This document shows positions 35,164 through 63,259 of a DNA stretch of 64,000 bases, piece after piece; within the stretch, counting starts at the first letter, position 1, and each line of letters opens with the position of its first letter. Position numbers and translations under genes: made by a program. Below the pieces are notes generated by a model. That model was not told the DNA's origin. It did no database searches and saw only the letters and a program-made list of their open reading frames with translations. Source of the DNA: Escherichia phage PMBT57; the sequence record MG770228.1. One strand, written 5' to 3'.

Positions 35164-41737
<6,574 letters not shown>

Positions 41738-43330
41738 TCACACGATATATGAAGAGAGTGGGTTAACACTTCCAGTATCATCACCATCATCCCACAATGG
41801 GTCACCTGATGTATTAACTGGAACCATACCTGCTTGTGGTTTCCACGGGTTCAGGTAGCCAAGCATTGAAATGGTATCAATACAGTCATCCTTACCTTTA
41901 AGACCATTGATAGTGGCTAAACGAATTTGCCCCATAAAGAGTGTCATGATTGGGCTATCTTTCATCTCAGCAGGAAAATACATCTTACCAGCTTTGAACC
42001 AGGGAACCACGAGGTTAAACCTTGATAGCTTACTGGTTACAGGATGAATACCCGGTTGGCCTCCACGACTGGATGCAAAGTTAAAGAACACATTACGGTT
42101 AAGCATTTCCTTCTGAAGAAGAGAAATAAAACCACCTTGCTGTCCGGTAGTTTCTACACCAACTTGTTGTGGTTGGTATTCCTGAACCAGACGGAATAAG
42201 TCATCAAAGTTCTTATCCATAGTTTGACGGCAAGCAATACCATCTACCCAGAACCAGTCACCGTTAGAACCATATGCCCATACTGATATTACAGAGTAAT
42301 CAGATACCTGCTTCTCGCTGGTAGCAAAGTCAGTGGTGATATAGAAGTTATAACAAGAACGTAGACGTAATAGCTGCGTACGGGAATACCATTTAATCTC
42401 TGAATCTTGAATCAGACGTTCATCTTCAGAGCTGATACGTAACATCAATTCCTGATAAAAGGATGCCAGCTTACCTGTCTTCAATGCCATCTGGTATTGG
42501 TCATTGATGTAGTCATAGGAGAAACGGTCTTCCCAAGCACCTTGAAATTCTTCTCGCGTACATGGGAATTTCTCACATACAGGCCATACGTTGACATCCC
42601 AAGCACCAGATTCAACTGCTTCAATAAGAATGTCTTCCTTATTAAAGGGAGTACCATTAAATATTACCTTGCGTCTTGTTGGGTCAAGAGCATGGTTCAC
42701 GCCCTTATATACCGTGTCTTTAATGGCCTCCATTGATGTACGTGAGCGAGCATCATCATCGCTAACTAAGTCATCCAGTACACAAAGAACGGGACGTTTA
42801 CCAAAAATCTTAGTACCACGAAGACCTGTCTTAGCACCGAACATCTTCACACCAAGACGGTGACCTTCAGCATTTACAAACTCAAGGTAGTTATCTGTGA
42901 AGGTAGCTTTAGGAATCCATTGTTGCAGGAATGGTGAATTGTTGTATCGAAACTCAATGTTCTTACGGGCAGACTTAACACCGTTATCCATAGAGTCAGA
43001 TACATAAATCATTCCTTCTACTTTACCCAAGCTAGGTAGATGCCCAAACACTGCTAAGAACAAAGTAAAGTATTCCATGAACAGAGTTGTCTTTGCTGCA
43101 CCACGGAAACATAAGTTAGCAATGTACTGATTCCTACTGGTTATCTTATCCAGCATCTTTAAGTGAACAGGAGGGGTTTTGTTTGATTCCCCCTCCTTAC
43201 CATTAACCAGCTTAATAAAGTTAGCAAAGGTCAGTGCAAACTCGGTTGGTATATACGTAGGGGTATTCAGAACGGAATAGTCCACTTGGTCTAGCCATTC
43301 ATCCAACTCCTGTTTAATTAGTTCAGACAT
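41738..43330 (-). CDS. terminase large subunit
   Basis: Walker A-like RGAAKTT near the N-terminus of the ATPase domain and a nuclease-like acidic C-terminal half; start moved to Met15 (MSELIKQ) to avoid a 50-nt overlap with the upstream gene. Confidence 0.7.
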   Translation of the reverse strand: MSELIKQELDEWLDQVDYSVLNTPTYIPTEFALTFANFIKLVNGKEGESNKTPPVHLKMLDKITSRNQYIANLCFRGAAKTTLFMEYFTLFLAVFGHLPSLGKVEGMIYVSDSMDNGVKSARKNIEFRYNNSPFLQQWIPKATFTDNYLEFVNAEGHRLGVKMFGAKTGLRGTKIFGKRPVLCVLDDLVSDDDARSRTSMEAIKDTVYKGVNHALDPTRRKVIFNGTPFNKEDILIEAVESGAWDVNVWPVCEKFPCTREEFQGAWEDRFSYDYINDQYQMALKTGKLASFYQELMLRISSEDERLIQDSEIKWYSRTQLLRLRSCYNFYITTDFATSEKQVSDYSVISVWAYGSNGDWFWVDGIACRQTMDKNFDDLFRLVQEYQPQQVGVETTGQQGGFISLLQKEMLNRNVFFNFASSRGGQPGIHPVTSKLSRFNLVVPWFKAGKMYFPAEMKDSPIMTLFMGQIRLATINGLKGKDDCIDTISMLGYLNPWKPQAGMVPVNTSGDPLWDDGDDTGSVNPLSSYIV

Positions 43331-44015
43331 CAATAATATCCTCGTCTTCTCGAACCAGTGTGGAACCTGCAATTACTTTAGTAGGTGTACCAGCTTCAAT
43401 AGCTGCTTTCTGAGCTTCAGCCAACTGGGTTAGTGTGTTCTTGAGTTCAGTCAATCCAGAGTTTTCTCTCAAATCCAGATTGATATTAGTAACAGCATCC
43501 TTCGGTTTCTGGAGGTGAGTAAGGATAGAGTTGGCAGCATCACACTGTACCTTCTCACTGGTAGCATTCTTCATGAGCCATGCCTGATGGTTCAATGCTT
43601 CCTGAAACAAATCCTGATTAACAATCCATACTGGAATCAGTGATTGTTCCATAATGAGGTTTACTAACTTACCTCTATGGTAAGCAGATACATAAGCAGA
43701 GATGTCCTTCTCACTGGTTCCCCTTGCTACTAATTCAGCTTGTCTGTTGGGGAATGTTTTGAAGTAAGCATCTTTGTTGCTATACCCCATGTGTTTGTAA
43801 GTAACATATTGAACAGCATTAAGATAATCCTGGGTCTTAAACTTCCCATCCTTCATCACCCCAGCATAAGTCACAAAGTTATTTCTAATTTGCTCTGCTG
43901 CTGTCTGGTCTTGGGTCACATTGTTAATCATGTTTACCAGTTGGTCAGTAACACTGCTTTTAAACTGGGGAGGCAATGCAGAAACAATGTCTTTCTTCGT
44001 CAGTAGTGTGCTCAT
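43323..44015 (-). CDS. first gene of the late operon (230 aa); possible small-terminase-like packaging partner
   Basis: Immediately upstream of the large terminase and overlapping it; RBS AGGAAG before the ATG; product is positional inference. Confidence 0.4.
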   Translation of the reverse strand: MSTLLTKKDIVSALPPQFKSSVTDQLVNMINNVTQDQTAAEQIRNNFVTYAGVMKDGKFKTQDYLNAVQYVTYKHMGYSNKDAYFKTFPNRQAELVARGTSEKDISAYVSAYHRGKLVNLIMEQSLIPVWIVNQDLFQEALNHQAWLMKNATSEKVQCDAANSILTHLQKPKDAVTNINLDLRENSGLTELKNTLTQLAEAQKAAIEAGTPTKVIAGSTLVREDEDIIDV

Positions 44016-44142
44016 AGTCTTCCTACAAATTATCTAGAGTGAAGAGGATTCTTTTCTTGGGGTTAGCACCCCTTGCAGAAACCTATACATAGATTTAGAC
44101 TTTAGACTTTCTTTAGTCTCCTTACAATAGTAAGACAGAGAC

Positions 44143-44484
44143 ATGGGGAGCCTATTGCCCAAAGGAACCAGTAACATGAGACTATTCTATAGTTTTGACG
44201 GTAATGACCAATGGAATGAGATAGACTTCAGTAAAATAGGTGGAGCTATCCCAGTTGGAGGGGCTATACCAGGTGACCATATCTTATGTCACGATGAGGA
44301 GTCTTTCCATTACATCTCCGGTATGATGTTAATCAATAACGTCACTGGGTTTACTGTCCATAAACCTGCACCAGTACGTGTCATTACCAAGCCTATTGAG
44401 GGTCTTGCATTCTTTACAAGAATACCTCAAAGTATCTCTATCAAACGACAGCGTGACGCCATCGAGATGACCGTGGTTGCTTGA
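44143..44484 (+). CDS. questionable ORF (113 aa) in the putative terminal region
   Basis: Track ORF with weak RBS; contains an 18-nt imperfect tandem DNA repeat encoding GGAIPVGGAIPG; may be non-coding. Confidence 0.25.
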   Translation: MGSLLPKGTSNMRLFYSFDGNDQWNEIDFSKIGGAIPVGGAIPGDHILCHDEESFHYISGMMLINNVTGFTVHKPAPVRVITKPIEGLAFFTRIPQSISIKRQRDAIEMTVVA

Positions 44485-44647
44485 TAAGCCATTGCCCGCC
44501 CAGGAGTTGGTGGCGGGAAACAGGGAACTGTTTGAATAACCACTCCAGCTACATTCACCCATCTCCAAGACACCTTTGTTATCTGCCATTGGGTGATGAG
44601 TAGTATCAGAGAGAACTGATTTAACAAACACACTCGGTATAGGAATT

Positions 44648-44676
44648 GGGAGCCATTTGGCTCCCTTTTTCTTTTA
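44648..44676 (+). terminator. rho-independent terminator
   Basis: gggagcc - atttg - gctccc followed by TTTTTCTTTT. Confidence 0.65.
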
Positions 44677-44694
44677 TGAACCAAGGAGTTCTAT

Positions 44695-45060
44695 ATGAAC
44701 ATTCGTCCTAATGAAGTTTATGGTATCAACCTAGAATACACTACAAACAAACCTGCTCTATTTCACTGCGGTTCCACCAATCTATTCCATGCTATGTGTG
44801 GTAATACCAAACCTCTTTACTTACCCGAATCGGATGATACCCATGCCCTACTAGGTAACTGGTTCTTAGAAGGTAAAGACATTAGTACCATTCTTCTCGA
44901 ACCAAGGAAGAAAGTAGCAATACCTACTAATGCATGGAATAACGAAGTCATTTACTTCCTAGCACCAGAAGGCTTTGAACCAGTGATAGAACAGAATCAC
45001 TTTAATCATGCAGTTACTTTCTACTTCAGAGAGACTTCAAAGTTATCTGCTTATAAATAA
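44695..45060 (+). CDS. hypothetical protein (121 aa)
   Basis: Strong RBS AAGGAG 8 nt upstream of the ATG; track ORF. Confidence 0.6.
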   Translation: MNIRPNEVYGINLEYTTNKPALFHCGSTNLFHAMCGNTKPLYLPESDDTHALLGNWFLEGKDISTILLEPRKKVAIPTNAWNNEVIYFLAPEGFEPVIEQNHFNHAVTFYFRETSKLSAYK

Positions 45061-45068
45061 GGAAAGCT

Positions 45069-45197
45069 ATGTGGTATATAACAGTTAAAGGTTTATCCGA
45101 ACCAGTGATGATAGATAGCCTGGCATTCGTAGAAGTAGGTCATCCTATTCTTATAGAAGGTAAGTTGTATGAAGTTGTTAGTATTTATAAGAGATAA
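45069..45197 (+). CDS. small hypothetical protein (42 aa)
   Basis: ATG preceded by AAGGAAAG, 8 nt after the upstream stop; below the track cutoff; coordinates approximate. Confidence 0.35.
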   Translation: MWYITVKGLSEPVMIDSLAFVEVGHPILIEGKLYEVVSIYKR

Positions 45198-45305
45198 ATA
45201 GGAAGTCTATTAGATAGATACCTTATAATTTTTTCTTAGTGAAAATAGTCATAGTTACTTATGAGTTCAGTATTTGGTGGGGCTACACCCCTTACACCAT
45301 AAGCA

Positions 45306-45314
45306 CCCCCCCCC
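45306..45314. repeat. homopolymeric C9 tract in a 230-nt non-coding region
   Basis: Nine consecutive C read in the intergenic region 45198-45427, flanked by a ggctaca/tgtagcc inverted repeat. Confidence 0.5.
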
Positions 45315-45363
45315 TGTCTTTACTAGTGTAGCCTTAGCCTACCCCACCTTGTACACGTTACAC

Positions 45364-45381
45364 GTTGCTTCGCAACTTATG
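45364..45381 (+). promoter_or_regulatory. candidate vRNAP hairpin promoter (P-a)
   Basis: Perfect 5-bp stem / 3-nt loop gttgc-TTC-gcaac (template-strand loop GAA), followed by TTATGGA with G 11 nt from the loop centre; same architecture as the elements at 45833 and 49820. Confidence 0.55.
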
Positions 45382-45427
45382 GACATGTTGTCCGTATCTT
45401 ATCAATCAACTATTGGAGACTAATACT

Positions 45428-45754
45428 ATGACTACTCAGGCTAACGTTCGTATGACTGTAGGAACTCTGTTGGGTACTGTTAACGAAGCAGCAACTACTG
45501 TAGCTGATACATTCGGTACTGCTACTAAAGCAGTAGGTATGCTTAATCGTTATGTAACTAAACAAGCAGATAAACAAATCATTCGTGACAAATTAGAAAT
45601 GCATGAGTTTACCAATAAACTTATTGAAGAAACTGCAATGCAAGAAGCTATTCGTCAGAAACAAATCTTAGACTTCTGCAAAGATGAACAAAACAAAGAA
45701 TTGTTCTCTAATGCCTATGACCGTCTTAGCAAAATCTTAGCAGACTCTAAATAA
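45428..45754 (+). CDS. hypothetical early protein (108 aa)
   Basis: Start moved to the ATG preceded by GGAG (track start upstream is within the promoter hairpin); followed by a hairpin terminator. Confidence 0.6.
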   Translation: MTTQANVRMTVGTLLGTVNEAATTVADTFGTATKAVGMLNRYVTKQADKQIIRDKLEMHEFTNKLIEETAMQEAIRQKQILDFCKDEQNKELFSNAYDRLSKILADSK

Positions 45755-45766
45755 CAACAAACAAAT

Positions 45767-45790
45767 GGAGGCTCCTCGGAGTCTCCTTTT
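45767..45790 (+). terminator. rho-independent terminator
   Basis: 8-bp stem ggaggctc / gagtctcc (one G-T pair) with a ctcg loop, followed by TTTT. Confidence 0.5.
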
Positions 45791-45830
45791 ACATAGAACC
45801 GATAGTTCAATAACTATCTACTTTAAAGAT

Positions 45831-45850
45831 AAGAAGCTCCGCTTCTTTTG
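45831..45850 (+). promoter_or_regulatory. candidate vRNAP hairpin promoter (P-b)
   Basis: aagaagc-TCC-gcttctt (7-bp stem, 3-nt loop; template-strand loop GGA) followed by TTTTGGA with G 11 nt from the loop centre. Confidence 0.6.
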
Positions 45851-45958
45851 GATGAAGTAATGCATCCAATCCTGTATGAAATCTTAACCTTTTGTCTGGG
45901 ATTACTTACCGACAAAGTAGTCTCAACTAATCAAAATCAACTATCTGGAGAGTACAAA

Positions 45959-46345
45959 ATGGCTATCACTACTTTTGCTAAAACCTTTGGTCAGACTTCT
46001 ACTAAAACTGAATCCAACAATGGTTCTCGCCCGAAAGCTCAGTTCTGGATTAACGTTGGCTACGTAGCTAATGAAGGCACTGAAGATGAACGTTTCATCT
46101 CTCTGCCTACTGGTATTCCACTGGATACTCAGGAGCATCTGCCAACCAATTCCTCTAACGAAGACTTCCGTGCAATGCGTTGTGCACAGAACGATTTGTT
46201 AGACCAACTGATGGAATTTGCTAAGACTCTGGAACCGGGTCAAGAAGGAGTTATCTCCTTGCAAGTTCAACTTCGTCGAGTTAAAGAAGAAGCTCCTGCT
46301 ATCTCAGCAAGTGAGAATAAATATGCTCGTAAACTGACTTTCTAA
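45959..46345 (+). CDS. hypothetical early protein (129 aa)
   Basis: Start moved to the ATG preceded by GGAGAG (track start 45848 is TTG and sits inside the promoter hairpin); a strong terminator follows. Confidence 0.55.
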
Positions 46346-46352
46346 TCTCTAT

Positions 46353-46380
46353 AGGACTACCTTCGGGTAGTCCTTTTTAA
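46353..46380 (+). terminator. rho-independent terminator
   Basis: aggactacc - ttcg - ggtagtcct (9-bp stem, TTCG loop) followed by TTTTT. Confidence 0.75.
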
Positions 46381-46487
46381 TTTTAACTATCTAAATACTA
46401 AAGTAGAGATTTTGACCCTTTTCGACGAAGGGATACTAAAAAGTAATGGATAGTTTGAGCAGATGTTTTAGAAGAAGGAGTATACAG

Positions 46488-60733: not shown

Positions 60734-63259
60734 ATGCAAGTAGCTGACTCTACTGAACTGACCACATCAGCAACGTTGGGTGCTCAAGATGCTATGGCCT
60801 TCGGTATTTCTGAAGACCCAGCATTCTTCCAAATACTCAGTGCTAACCTCTATTCTAATCAGAAACTGGCAATGGTACGTGAGACATTGTGCAATAGCTG
60901 GGATGCTCATATTGAGGGGAATAAAACAGATATTCCTATCCATGTAACCATTGATAAAGATGGTTTCCTTATCTTCCGTGACTATGGTTCTGGTATTCCT
61001 AAAGATAAGATTCAAGAGGTCTATGGGGTATATGGTGCATCTACCAAGAAAGCTAATACTGCTTCCACCGGTGGCTTTGGCTTAGGATGTAAATCCCCTA
61101 TGGCCTATACAGACAGTTTTACTGTCACATCTATGTGTGACGGAACCAAGACTGTCTATCACATTGCTAAATCTTCTGTTGAGACTAACGGTAAACCAGG
61201 GATTATTCCTATCGTTAGCGTACCTACTGAAGAATCCGGGCTTGAAGTTAAAATTCAGCTTCAGTCAGAAGATATTTTAGAAATTGATTCATATATTCGA
61301 GCCATTGTATTACATGGTGAGATTAAATGTATTTACTGCAATCAGTATACAGGACCAAATACAGTAGAATTACTGCCTGTACTGGGTATGTCTTTTGAAC
61401 CAGGTAGCTATAACCTAGACCATAGCACATGGCATAAATATTACATGGGCAGTCATTCAATATTTATCCGTTATGGTAATGTTATGTACCCTGCTTTGGA
61501 TACCCCTGCTACACATGAAGCATTAAAACTGGTTAAACAGTTTATGCAGGTTATTAACTGTAGCCGTATCGTTGTTCAAGCTGCCCCATCATCACTAGCT
61601 GTAGCACCTAGCCGTGAAACACTGTCATCTCAAAAAATGACCGAAGACGGTATCGTAAATTTGGCTGTAGCTTTAGTAGATAAAATGGAAGCAGATATTA
61701 AAGCTCGTCTTCCAAATGCTATTGAATATATTGGAAAAGCTATTAAAGAATATAGTCCTCACCGTTTTGAAGTAAATAGTTATTTGCCTTACACCAATTT
61801 AGTGCCTGATGTTATTGTCAGTCGTTATATGTCCTCTACTTTATTCAGTAAGCAATATGCTCATCTGTGTAAGAAATGGGGGAATATGGAAATTGACCGT
61901 CAACTAGAACATCCTGCACTGGCTCATTTCTCTGGTTCTCAAAAAGCCCATCTCCGTAAGCATTTAAAGAGGGCTAAGGATTTACGTAATTACAGGGAAT
62001 TAACTAAAGTATTTACTGATATGGCTATTAAGCCGATGTTCAAAACCTTTGCTAAATTAGGGATTACTAAAGGTATTTCTCTATTTCACTATCAATATGG
62101 TGTTGAACTGTGGCGTAATAATATTGTTAATAGTGTCCGTAGAATACACTCATTAAACTTCATGACTTATAGTTCTAAGAAGTGCCGTGTATTTGTTACC
62201 CCACGTATTACCAATATTGAAGATAGTCTGGCTGGGTATCCAGAGTTTGATAATCTTTCTACTGAGACACTGGTGAAATATAACTCAATCATTGTCAAAG
62301 TTGGAACCAAGAAAGGTGAAGCAGAGGCTATGACTAATCTGCTCACTAAAGCAGGATACGAAGTCACTAATATGGCTGAGTATCATGAGTGGGATTGTAT
62401 AGCTCGCAGACGTAAAGAGGAACAAGAGGCTAAATTAGCCATTTCCAAATTACAAGCTAAGAAAGCTACTAATAAGAAAAAGGTTAGTCCTAATCGTCTT
62501 ATTAGTATGAATATCCTTGAAATACCAAAAGAGCATCGTAGCTATTCGAGTGAAGTATGTGGTTCTCACTACGCTTCTCGTTCTCATGACCGAATGGTTG
62601 ATGTAGATACTCCCCAGTATTACATCATGCAGGAAGATATTAATAACTACACAGGAAGGCTTGGTGTTCTTTCTATGTGGCAATTAACCCCTGCTACCAT
62701 TAAAGATGTGACTGTTGTTTGTCGTAATAAAATTGAACGTAATAAAGCTATTAAGCGAGGTGCTGTTCATTTGGATGAATGGACTGCTCCGTATATTGCT
62801 TCAGTTCTTACATCCAAACAATTCATTAAGTATGTCACTAAAGAACGTCAGAAAACGTTAAGTGATATTGGTATTTACTCCAAACACCTCAGATTACTGA
62901 GAGAACTAGATATTACATATGCCCCATTGAAAGGTCTGCGTTATGACCCAGAACTGGAGAATGCTTATCTCTTCTTACAAAGTAGTAGCTACCCTAAGCT
63001 ACGTGCATTGTTAGGGAAGGGTCTGATTACTGAAGAAGAGTATCACTTCCTCAGTGATGTTGATGTGCATTGCAAGACTTTCAGTAAGTACTCGGAACTT
63101 CGTAGGATACCGAAGATGTTCCTTGATATTGATGCTGGGGGTTATATGTTGGCTGCATGTACTGTAGACACATTGCTTCGTGAAATCGAACAATTCCCTG
63201 AATCAATCCCTGCAATCAAACTGCTTGTAAAAGCTGCTCTTAAACGGAATACAGACTGA
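60734..63259 (+). CDS. rIIA-like protein with N-terminal GHKL (histidine-kinase-like) ATPase domain
   Basis: N-box-like RETLCNSWDAH, G1 DYGSGIP, G2 GGFGLG within the first 130 aa; 841 aa; followed by an overlapping downstream gene as in rIIA/rIIB pairs. Confidence 0.55.
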   Translation: MQVADSTELTTSATLGAQDAMAFGISEDPAFFQILSANLYSNQKLAMVRETLCNSWDAHIEGNKTDIPIHVTIDKDGFLIFRDYGSGIPKDKIQEVYGVYGASTKKANTASTGGFGLGCKSPMAYTDSFTVTSMCDGTKTVYHIAKSSVETNGKPGIIPIVSVPTEESGLEVKIQLQSEDILEIDSYIRAIVLHGEIKCIYCNQYTGPNTVELLPVLGMSFEPGSYNLDHSTWHKYYMGSHSIFIRYGNVMYPALDTPATHEALKLVKQFMQVINCSRIVVQAAPSSLAVAPSRETLSSQKMTEDGIVNLAVALVDKMEADIKARLPNAIEYIGKAIKEYSPHRFEVNSYLPYTNLVPDVIVSRYMSSTLFSKQYAHLCKKWGNMEIDRQLEHPALAHFSGSQKAHLRKHLKRAKDLRNYRELTKVFTDMAIKPMFKTFAKLGITKGISLFHYQYGVELWRNNIVNSVRRIHSLNFMTYSSKKCRVFVTPRITNIEDSLAGYPEFDNLSTETLVKYNSIIVKVGTKKGEAEAMTNLLTKAGYEVTNMAEYHEWDCIARRRKEEQEAKLAISKLQAKKATNKKKVSPNRLISMNILEIPKEHRSYSSEVCGSHYASRSHDRMVDVDTPQYYIMQEDINNYTGRLGVLSMWQLTPATIKDVTVVCRNKIERNKAIKRGAVHLDEWTAPYIASVLTSKQFIKYVTKERQKTLSDIGIYSKHLRLLRELDITYAPLKGLRYDPELENAYLFLQSSSYPKLRALLGKGLITEEEYHFLSDVDVHCKTFSKYSELRRIPKMFLDIDAGGYMLAACTVDTLLREIEQFPESIPAIKLLVKAALKRNTD

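Follow-up and report, generated by a model that had tools for sequence, protein, structure and literature searches.

Gene arrangement at the junction

The sequence analysed here, called the window throughout, is a stretch of 64,000 nt from Escherichia phage PMBT57 (MG770228.1). Our subject is the interval 44016–45427, a strand-switch region which an earlier inspection of the letters and open reading frames (ORFs), the sequence-only reading, had proposed as a candidate genome terminus with a collapsed terminal repeat. In a megablast comparison with phage records, positions 43300–46400 are 98.4–99.1% identical to coliphage N4, Jura, AL25, the BEU phages, AlfredRasser, 3HA13 and OLB145, and the coordinates of vB_Eco_AL25 are the same as those of the window. 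The annotation of N4 has gp68 (terminase), gp69, gp70, gp71 and gp72 at the right end of the genome and gp1, gp2 onward at its left end. As the sequence-only reading had it, the late operon runs leftward from 44015, where gp69 starts on the minus strand, and the early promoters, which it had put to the right from 45364, indeed begin with a hairpin promoter at 45365–45377. From left to right the order would be the divergent gp69/gp70 control region, gp70, a structured RNA with a terminator, gp71–gp72, 77 nt of unique right-end DNA and the left physical end at 45275 (Table 1).

With high probability, the interval represents the junction of the right and left ends of a linear genome of the coliphage N4 type (Enquatrovirus), in a circularised assembly whose start was set at another place. 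The ends of the N4 genome, its terminal repeat and its hairpin promoters have belonged to textbook knowledge from the 1980s on. This part is known biology and the flagged finding contains nothing new; the only part that may be new is the structured RNA in the gp70–gp71 spacer. For annotation, the PMBT57 genome should be opened at 45275, the terminal repeat (~45275–45686) should be annotated and ORFs called over the terminus and the C tract, as seen in one relative, should be dropped, while gp70, gp71 and gp72 should be kept.

Table 1. Features at and around the junction of the genome ends (window positions)
Feature	Position	Strand	Evidence or remark
gp69, small-terminase-like, first gene of the leftward late operon	43323–44015	-	annotated in N4 and Jura; PHROG 2109; 'small terminase subunit' in UniRef and in the KP8 record
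Divergent gp69/gp70 control region	44016–44175	.	TAGACTT x3 (44090–44110); sigma70-like TTTAGA-16-TACAAT, + strand, 44101–44128
gp70 (102 aa), conserved protein	44176–44484	+	ATG 44176 after AAGGAA Shine-Dalgarno; PHROG 7213
Putative RNA element, core	44494–44604	+	covariance models, covariation, folding z-score
RNA helix P1 (GC-rich, 11-nt loop)	44496–44500 with 44512–44516	+	core element
Pseudoknot (H-type) GGAG/CTCC	44503–44506 with 44543–44546	+	core element
RNA helix P2, AAACAG-GGAA-CTGTTT hairpin; optional, variable across phages	44518–44533	+	core element
Conserved AATAAC linker	44535–44540	+	core element
RNA helix P3, enclosing stem	44548–44552 with 44600–44604	+	core element
RNA helix P4, inner stem	44556–44561 with 44590–44595	+	core element
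Single-stranded TCTCC ((A)CUCCUU across spacers)	44562–44566	+	core element
RNA hairpin P5	44605–44620	+	3' of core
Intrinsic terminator GGGAGCC-ATTT-GGCTCCC (hairpin 44648–44665), then TTTTTCTTTT	44648–44675	+	GC-rich hairpin and T run; annotated in Jura and AL25
gp71 (121 aa)	44695–45060	+	PHROG 9160
gp72 (42 aa)	45069–45197	+	PHROG 19797
Last 77 nt of unique right-end DNA	45198–45274	.	window 45274 = N4 base 70153; sequence just upstream of the cut also conserved in Gamaleyavirus
Direct terminal repeat, collapsed	45275–~45686	.	left end by N4 mapping; inner boundary inferred at 45664–45714
Terminal motif GGGGCTACACCCCTTACAC and interrupted inverted repeat enclosing C9	45276–45348	.	sequence inspection, relatives compared
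TACACGT x2, then early promoter P1	45352–45382	+	hairpin GTTGC-TTC-GCAAC 45365–45377; predicted start G at 45382
Gene 1 (gp1, 108 aa)	45428–45754	+	first ~260–290 nt within the terminal repeat

The genome ends and the terminal repeat

When the last 1300 nt of the N4 record were joined to its first 700 nt, the resulting sequence aligned over its whole length (2000 nt) with window positions 43975–45974, at 98.5% identity and with zero gaps. N4 base 70153 corresponds to window position 45274 and N4 base 1 to position 45275 (TGGTGGGGCTACACC...). Thus, the left physical end of N4 falls within a 230-nt stretch (45198–45427) which the sequence-only reading had described as free of ORFs and for which indeed no gene is annotated in N4, Jura or AL25.

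Three later papers ascribe direct terminal repeats of 390–440 bp to N4 virion DNA, together with 3' extensions, a single left end and several right ones (PMC3715699, PMC3670811, PMC3896407), in agreement with the repeats of a few hundred bp named in the sequence-only reading. In the N4 record itself, the left-end sequence is not found again at the right end, and a recent paper speaks of a '70.5-kb' genome versus the 70,153 bp of the record. Because the second copy is absent from the record, yet repeats of this length exist in virion DNA and the genome size is given as 70.5 kb, the record represents the genome with a single repeat copy. In the window, the segment 45275–45714 is single-copy as well, which is expected if the repeat has been collapsed in assembly.

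The left end is found at the same place in relatives. In Gamaleyavirus IME11 the read pile-ups begin at two sites separated by 402 bp, (T)GTGGCTGGGGCTACACCC and the complement of ...TTCTGCAAAGATT (PMC3896407), which align to window positions 45274/5 and 45686. The annotated terminal repeat of G7C starts at TGACAGGGGCTACACC, homologous to the left end in the window. The left ends of N4, IME11 and G7C, be they experimental, read-defined or annotated, therefore agree within 1–2 nt. Furthermore, 10 viral contigs share one layout, consisting of a conserved approach sequence, the cut site, GGGGCTACACCC-TTACAC, poly-C, a palindrome arm, CTACCCCACCT, TACACGTTACAC and the hairpin promoter.

The inner boundary of the repeat can be placed by homology only, at 45686 from IME11 (giving 412 bp) or at 45664–45714 from the lengths in the N4 literature. 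So delimited, the repeat contains the interrupted inverted repeat, the C9 tract, hairpin promoter P1 and ~80% of gene 1. Only its first ~150 bp are inside the flagged interval; the remainder extends rightward beyond it. Judged by this mapping, positions 44016–45274 would be unique right-end DNA and not repeat. The sequence-only reading was thus partly right. It sensed the terminus and a collapsed, single-copy repeat correctly, with N4 ends that abut at 45274/45275 and with IME11 and G7C in agreement, but it boxed mostly unrelated unique DNA: the repeat begins only at 45275 and runs out of the flagged region to the right, and both the 18-nt and TAGACTT repeats, like the GGAA-loop hairpin, are located in the unique part and have no connection with the terminus. 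It also wrongly doubted three conserved genes (see below).

During packaging, the terminase (gp68 with gp69) would cut concatemers at a fixed site between ...GTATT and TGGTGGGGCTACACC..., and each genome would end a few hundred bp beyond the next copy of this site. Virion DNA would therefore hold 45275–~45686 at both ends, two copies which assemblers merge. The repeat would be the first DNA to enter the cell, bringing promoter P1 with it, and the injected virion RNA polymerase would start at 45382 and transcribe gene 1.

Compared to the ends of coliphage N4, there is no difference in kind. PMBT57 shares 98.5% of the sequence, a left end at the base homologous to 45275 and a repeat of a few hundred bp with promoter P1 and the start of gene 1; it has few substitutions and, as the GenBank record of N4, one repeat copy. 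With Gamaleyavirus IME11 (402-bp repeat) and G7C (1160-bp repeat) it has in common the left-end motif T-G-R-(C)-N-GGGGCTACACCC, poly-C, the palindrome arm, a CCCCACC box, TACACGTTACAC and the hairpin promoter, all in the same order, whereas the identity is only ~77%, the tract is C7–C10, the inner boundary lies at 402 or 1160 bp, and in G7C the register of the palindrome is shifted. The short direct terminal repeats of T7 and T3 are similar in their fixed ends and in a repeat of a few hundred bp that is duplicated when packaging from concatemers and collapsed in assemblies. In contrast, N4 is reported to have 3' extensions, several right ends and a hairpin promoter for a virion-borne RNA polymerase within the repeat.

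Some points weigh against the placement of a terminus here. The physical ends of PMBT57 itself are inferred by homology only, and the end structure of N4 described by Ohmori, Haynes & Rothman-Denes in 1988 is known to us via papers citing it (PMC3715699, PMC3670811, PMC3896407). The inner boundary varies among relatives, with 402 bp in IME11, 1160 bp in G7C and 390–440 bp in N4. Moreover, the terminal inverted repeat, folded as single-stranded DNA, is no more stable than shuffled sequences (z = -0.42). For the last reason we make no claim of hairpin priming.

One could also regard the interval as an ordinary strand-switch region with divergent promoters, in a genome which is circularly permuted or has its ends elsewhere, so that nothing terminal is located at 45275. 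The records of relatives were indeed opened arbitrarily (AL25 and Jura at ~43–45 kb, AlfredRasser at gp69, SPSP within gp2). However, the gapless identity over the N4 end junction, the conserved end-adjacent motif, the coincidence of the three left ends and the description of N4-like phages with defined, non-permuted ends (PMC7650795, PMC3670811) make it extremely improbable. Similarly, the C9 tract next to the terminus might be an artefact of sequencing or assembly without biological reality, all the more as its length differs between near-identical records (C8, C9, C10 and C12) and several sequencing platforms tend to make errors in homopolymers. However, all Enquatrovirus records examined have a C tract here, the N4 reference with C9 among them, and Gamaleyavirus contigs of only ~77% identity have one of C7–C10. 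This leaves only the exact length in each record uncertain and the artefact quite improbable.

Three side observations concern the ends. In the IME11 record (JX880034; positions 62722 and 63122–63124), which is opposite in orientation to N4, the end called 'right, multi-termini' in the termini paper (2–3 adjacent read starts) is the homologue of the N4 left end, and the 'left, unique' end is the inner repeat boundary. The record of phage F22 (OP870143) opens with its own gp1/P1 region in inverted orientation (83–238, compared with 2825–2982 of a second segment), after which comes the terminal motif, interspersed with N bases. Such a start suggests that the genome end was misassembled. Within the duplication in gp70, positions 44256–44270 (TGGAGGGGCTATACC) differ from the left terminus TGGTGGGGCTACACC (45275–45289) at 2 of 15 positions. 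This is the best non-self match to the terminus in 64 kb, where seven matches with up to three mismatches were found and 1.1 were expected; it could be a coincidence or the relic of an event related to the terminase site.

The inverted repeat and the C tract

The inverted repeats noted in the sequence-only reading are present. The arm GGTGGGGCTACAC (45276–45288) pairs with GTGTAGCC...CCCCACC (45326–45348), and the palindrome is conserved across genera. In the spacer between its arms lies the run of nine C residues at 45306–45314, likewise noted before, which is the only homopolymer of at least eight bases in 64 kb. Among near-identical records, length variation within the 230-nt stretch is mainly found here, with C8 in BEU5, C9 in the window, N4 and BEU13, C10 in Jura, AL25, AlfredRasser, 3HA13 and OLB145, and C12 in SPSP. 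The sequence-only reading had considered a slippage-prone site or a sequencing artefact. The range from C8 to C12 among isolates agrees with a slippage-prone or hard-to-sequence site; an artefact of the PMBT57 assembly can be dismissed, because the length varies among isolates, the tract is kept in another genus (C7–C10) and N4 has C9 as well. We therefore regard the tract, as far as the records go, as a real conserved feature with drifting length, for which records alone cannot separate slippage from sequencing error.

In AlfredRasser, a 61-aa 'hypothetical protein' (bas69_0081; 365–550, corresponding to about 45239–45424 of the window) is annotated over the terminus and the C tract, in a frame that depends on tract length. 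Since N4, Jura and AL25 have no annotation there, bas69_0081 is probably not a gene.

A conserved fold in the gp70–gp71 spacer

The spacer between gp70 and gp71 comprises 210 nt and agrees with that of G7C-type phages in its length and in the arrangement of its hairpins; a gap of 200–256 nt also follows gp70 in KP8, ECBP1, SP5M, 24-32N, Pseudomonas phage inbricus and Achromobacter phage JWAlpha. The GGAA-tetraloop hairpin pointed out in the sequence-only reading is located here (44518–44533, AAACAG-GGAA-CTGTTT) and corresponds to helix P2 of the putative RNA. The spacers compared share helix P1, an optional P2, the sequence AAUAAC, helices P3 and P4, the motif (A)CUCCUU, one or two small hairpins and a terminator. 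Moreover, four bases of the P1 loop are complementary to four bases just past AAUAAC, and both change together: GGAG:CUCC in the window, GGAG:CUUC in N4 and KP8, and elsewhere GUAG:CUAC, GUGG:CCAC, GCGG:CCGC, GCAG:CUGC, GUGA:UCAC, GGUA:UACC and GCAA:UUGC. The minimum-energy fold of the window sequence recovers P1–P5 and the terminator (z = -3.1).

Conservation was assessed with a hand-curated alignment of seven sequences from Gamaleyavirus, Jwalphavirus and Inbricusvirus, which was passed through MAFFT unchanged with gaps padded by N. All of its 253 cells (100%) are paired and 18 of the 39 pairs are compensatory; in controls with slid partners 30–45% of cells are paired and 0–2 pairs compensatory. 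From these seven sequences, among them none of the N4 type, a first covariance model was built, restricted to the nested helices. It finds window positions 44494–44604 on the plus strand with 26 bits (E = 1.1e-5) and has no other match below E = 0.1 in 64 kb, the next one being partial (42032–42080, E = 0.41). Copies of the KP8 type and from environmental sequences are matched, too.

For a broader sample, 80 loci around gp69 homologues were taken from viral contigs; an alignment of gp70 was too divergent for locus finding. With a second model, the element was found in 47 of 81 sources at E <= 0.1, in the window with E = 3.9e-9, and all matches lie upstream of gp69 on the divergent strand. Among the 37 distinct sequences 94% of cells are paired, against 33–44% with slid partners, compensatory changes occur in 36 of 38 pairs, and a covariation score of 0.51 was obtained (controls: 0.04–0.09). 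In none of 500 shuffles was the observed value reached. The pseudoknot, which stands outside the covariance model, is paired in 100% of cells of these sequences. Its three variable positions show the pair types UA22/CG8/GU5/GC2, AU20/GC16/UA1 and GC30/AU4. Because the pseudoknot is absent from the model, its pairing is not an artefact of the alignment. As a conserved fold, the gp70–gp71 element is thus well supported by comparative sequence analysis.

Two points count against the RNA element. For the nested helices, either manual curation or the model adapted the alignments to the structure, so that the pairing counts are inflated for all parts except the pseudoknot. And in a strict scan, only 20 of the 37 distinct elements are followed by a terminator-like hairpin.

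The element has no match among catalogued RNA families. With Rfam 15 at a permissive threshold, zero matches at E <= 1 were obtained for window positions 43900–45900, and for seven homologous loci only a chance match to RAGATH-7 inside a coding sequence (E = 0.2, 22 bits versus a gathering score of 112). ARAGORN finds no tRNA or tmRNA in the flagged region. The literature searched yielded nothing on RNAs near gp70 or on the replication origin of N4.

A divergent copy without P2 was observed on the 18-kb contig IMGVR_UViG_3300030419_002178 (9072–9151). It has an 8-bp pseudoknot, GTAGGGGG:CCTCCTAC, and its minimum-energy fold favours the pseudoknot pairing over P1.

Possible roles of the element

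We lean towards the view that the spacer (44494–44675; ~69373–69554 in N4), which is not related to the terminus, gives rise to a previously undescribed structured non-coding RNA, widespread in Schitoviridae and with a dedicated role in the infection cycle. Its design, for which our confidence is likewise moderate, would join an H-type pseudoknot, with its conserved AAUAAC loop, to a multi-helix domain exposing an anti-Shine-Dalgarno-like YUCCU loop, always beside the small-terminase/gp70 module near the right end. The spacer would most probably yield a terminator-bounded RNA, either a folded 3' untranslated region of gp70 or a small RNA (sRNA) derived from the gp70 transcript, ending at 44648–44675. 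The geometry fits an intramolecular H-type pseudoknot in which the A-rich AAUAAC is the loop crossing stem 1. Such an RNA might control translation by sequestering Shine-Dalgarno sequences, regulate read-through of the terminator, or act as a partner of gp70 or of the packaging machinery. The first of these is suggested by the invariant single-stranded YUCCU, which is complementary to Shine-Dalgarno sequences.

In its general form we take the element to resemble H-type pseudoknot RNAs with an A-rich third loop, such as frameshift-stimulating pseudoknots and those of small riboswitches. Common to this class and the element are a GC-rich stem 1, a stem 2 of 4–6 bp formed from the hairpin loop and downstream sequence, and the A-rich AAUAAC at the position of loop 3. 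The element differs by the fused multi-helix domain with its YUCCU loop, has neither a slippery site nor a fixed distance to the stop codon, and does not match Rfam.

The main rival to a dedicated RNA is a cis-acting leader (a riboswitch, an attenuator or a put-like antiterminator) which would set the read-through of the terminator at 44648–44675 into gp71–gp72, toward the genome end. The order of folded domain, terminator, ribosome-binding site and gene is the classic layout for this, and in the N4-like phage LUZ7 terminators are prominently read through in a time-dependent manner (PMC9163698). We nevertheless consider it somewhat unlikely: the downstream gene is not conserved (27 records for gp71 versus 89 for gp70), many distant copies come without a clear terminator, and no alternative antiterminator pairing was identified. 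Less likely still would be a role as packaging RNA or at the level of DNA. In the latter case the spacer could serve as origin of replication or as packaging signal, or could form an extruded structure of single-stranded DNA. The early promoters of N4 do use extruded DNA hairpins together with SSB (PMC4496689), and the element adjoins the terminase genes, ~0.7 kb from the right end. Yet a pseudoknot and a three- to four-way junction are hard to extrude from duplex DNA, and a protein-binding site in duplex DNA would keep its sequence rather than its complementarity. G-U pairs are frequent (GU23, UG11 and GU13 at single positions) and therefore make the fold specific to the gp70-sense strand, on which an intrinsic terminator comes next in most close lineages. 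A function as DNA thus appears rather improbable.

Three further candidates were rejected. A recoding role of the pseudoknot (read-through or frameshift) does not agree with the in-frame TGA TAA at the end of N4 gp70, the missing slippery site and the distance from stop codon to pseudoknot, which is not conserved (~70 nt in JWAlpha and inbricus). RNA helix P1 is not a hairpin promoter, having a loop of 11 nt versus 3–4 nt in the hairpin promoters of N4 and LUZ7. Finally, the sRNA hotspot orf69–orf70 of LUZ7 (PMC9163698) resembles the element as an intergenic source of short non-coding transcripts (<250 nt) in an N4-like phage. It is a different locus, situated in the middle-gene region before the vRNAP gene, and the covariance model gave nothing significant on LUZ7 30–74.9 kb, its best match (E = 0.24) lying elsewhere than the hotspot. 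This non-significant match (35186–35299 of the record) is located in a 388-nt gap between the divergent genes gp059 and gp060 and has CCCGACUCC, without P1 or a pseudoknot.

N4 serves as the model of a large family of phages, and the putative RNA with its covarying pseudoknot spans coliphages, Pseudomonas, Achromobacter and environmental N4-like phages. If real and functional, it would offer a testable handle on unexplored regulation, or on packaging or replication, at the right end of the genome.

The genes gp70–gp72 and their control region

The ORFs between 44143 and 45197, considered uncertain in the sequence-only reading, correspond to the conserved genes gp70, gp71 and gp72. All three match PHROGs with E values from 1e-31 to 1e-48, and zero Pfam matches were found for them. 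By tblastn, homologues of gp70 were found in 89 records, with identities down to 26%; Achromobacter and Pseudomonas phages are among them, and the gene is always located immediately past gp69. For gp71 the number of records is 27, and for gp72 it is 26, unrelated coliphages included. Conservation of these ORFs as genes in relatives is the check which the sequence-only reading had itself named beforehand, and its doubt about them fails. On this comparative evidence we consider all three to be genes. A word-indexed protein search for relatives of gp70 returned only gp70 of N4.

The 18-nt tandem repeat reported at about 44231–44266 exists in a weaker form. It consists of two copies of ~75% identity at 44237–44252 and 44255–44270, is below the threshold of Tandem Repeats Finder (TRF) and was not reported by it, and is coding sequence of gp70. 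The encoded peptide, GGAIPVGGAIP, is an insertion found in the N4 lineage only and absent from the gp70 homologues of other genera.

Upstream of gp70, the direct repeat already recognised in the sequence-only reading is TAGACTT, in 3.1 copies at 44090–44110 (TRF score 35). The surrounding non-coding sequence 44088–44160 shares ~90% identity with the corresponding region of Pseudomonas phage inbricus, a member of another subfamily, and is well preserved in KP8. It is far more conserved than the flanking genes, gp70 of inbricus being only ~34% identical. Within it, a split hairpin GTCTC-CTTAC-AATA-GTAAG-ACA-GAGAC is found around the -10 element. The region is likely to be a constrained promoter or leader.

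Early promoters

For promoters of the N4 virion RNA polymerase the published rules are a stem of 5–7 bp, a 3-nt loop 5'-GRA-3' on the template strand, -9C, -8G, and +1C eight nt beyond -8 (PMC4496689). The template strand of promoter P1 reads GTTGC-GAA-GCAAC, AATA and then C at +1 (45365–45382), with a 5-bp stem and a 3-nt loop. It agrees with these rules in its loop 5'-GAA-3', -9C, -8G and +1C and is thus predicted from sequence to start at 45382, 46 nt before the ATG of gene 1 (45428). Of the four GCTYCGC cores in the window, three belong to the early region and lie on its plus strand (45367, 45836 and 49825). The hairpin of early promoter P2 (45833–45845), outside the terminal repeat, is the reverse complement of the published P2 oligonucleotide.

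An 8-bp hairpin, TATGGACA-TGT-TGTCCGTA, at 45378–45396 spans the predicted start of P1 and would form the 5' end of the P1 transcript. Its core GGACATGT(C/T)GTCC is kept in IME11, G7C and related contigs. Far from the junction, ARAGORN finds four tRNA genes (Asn, Ser, Thr and Pro) clustered at 7573–8251 on the plus strand.

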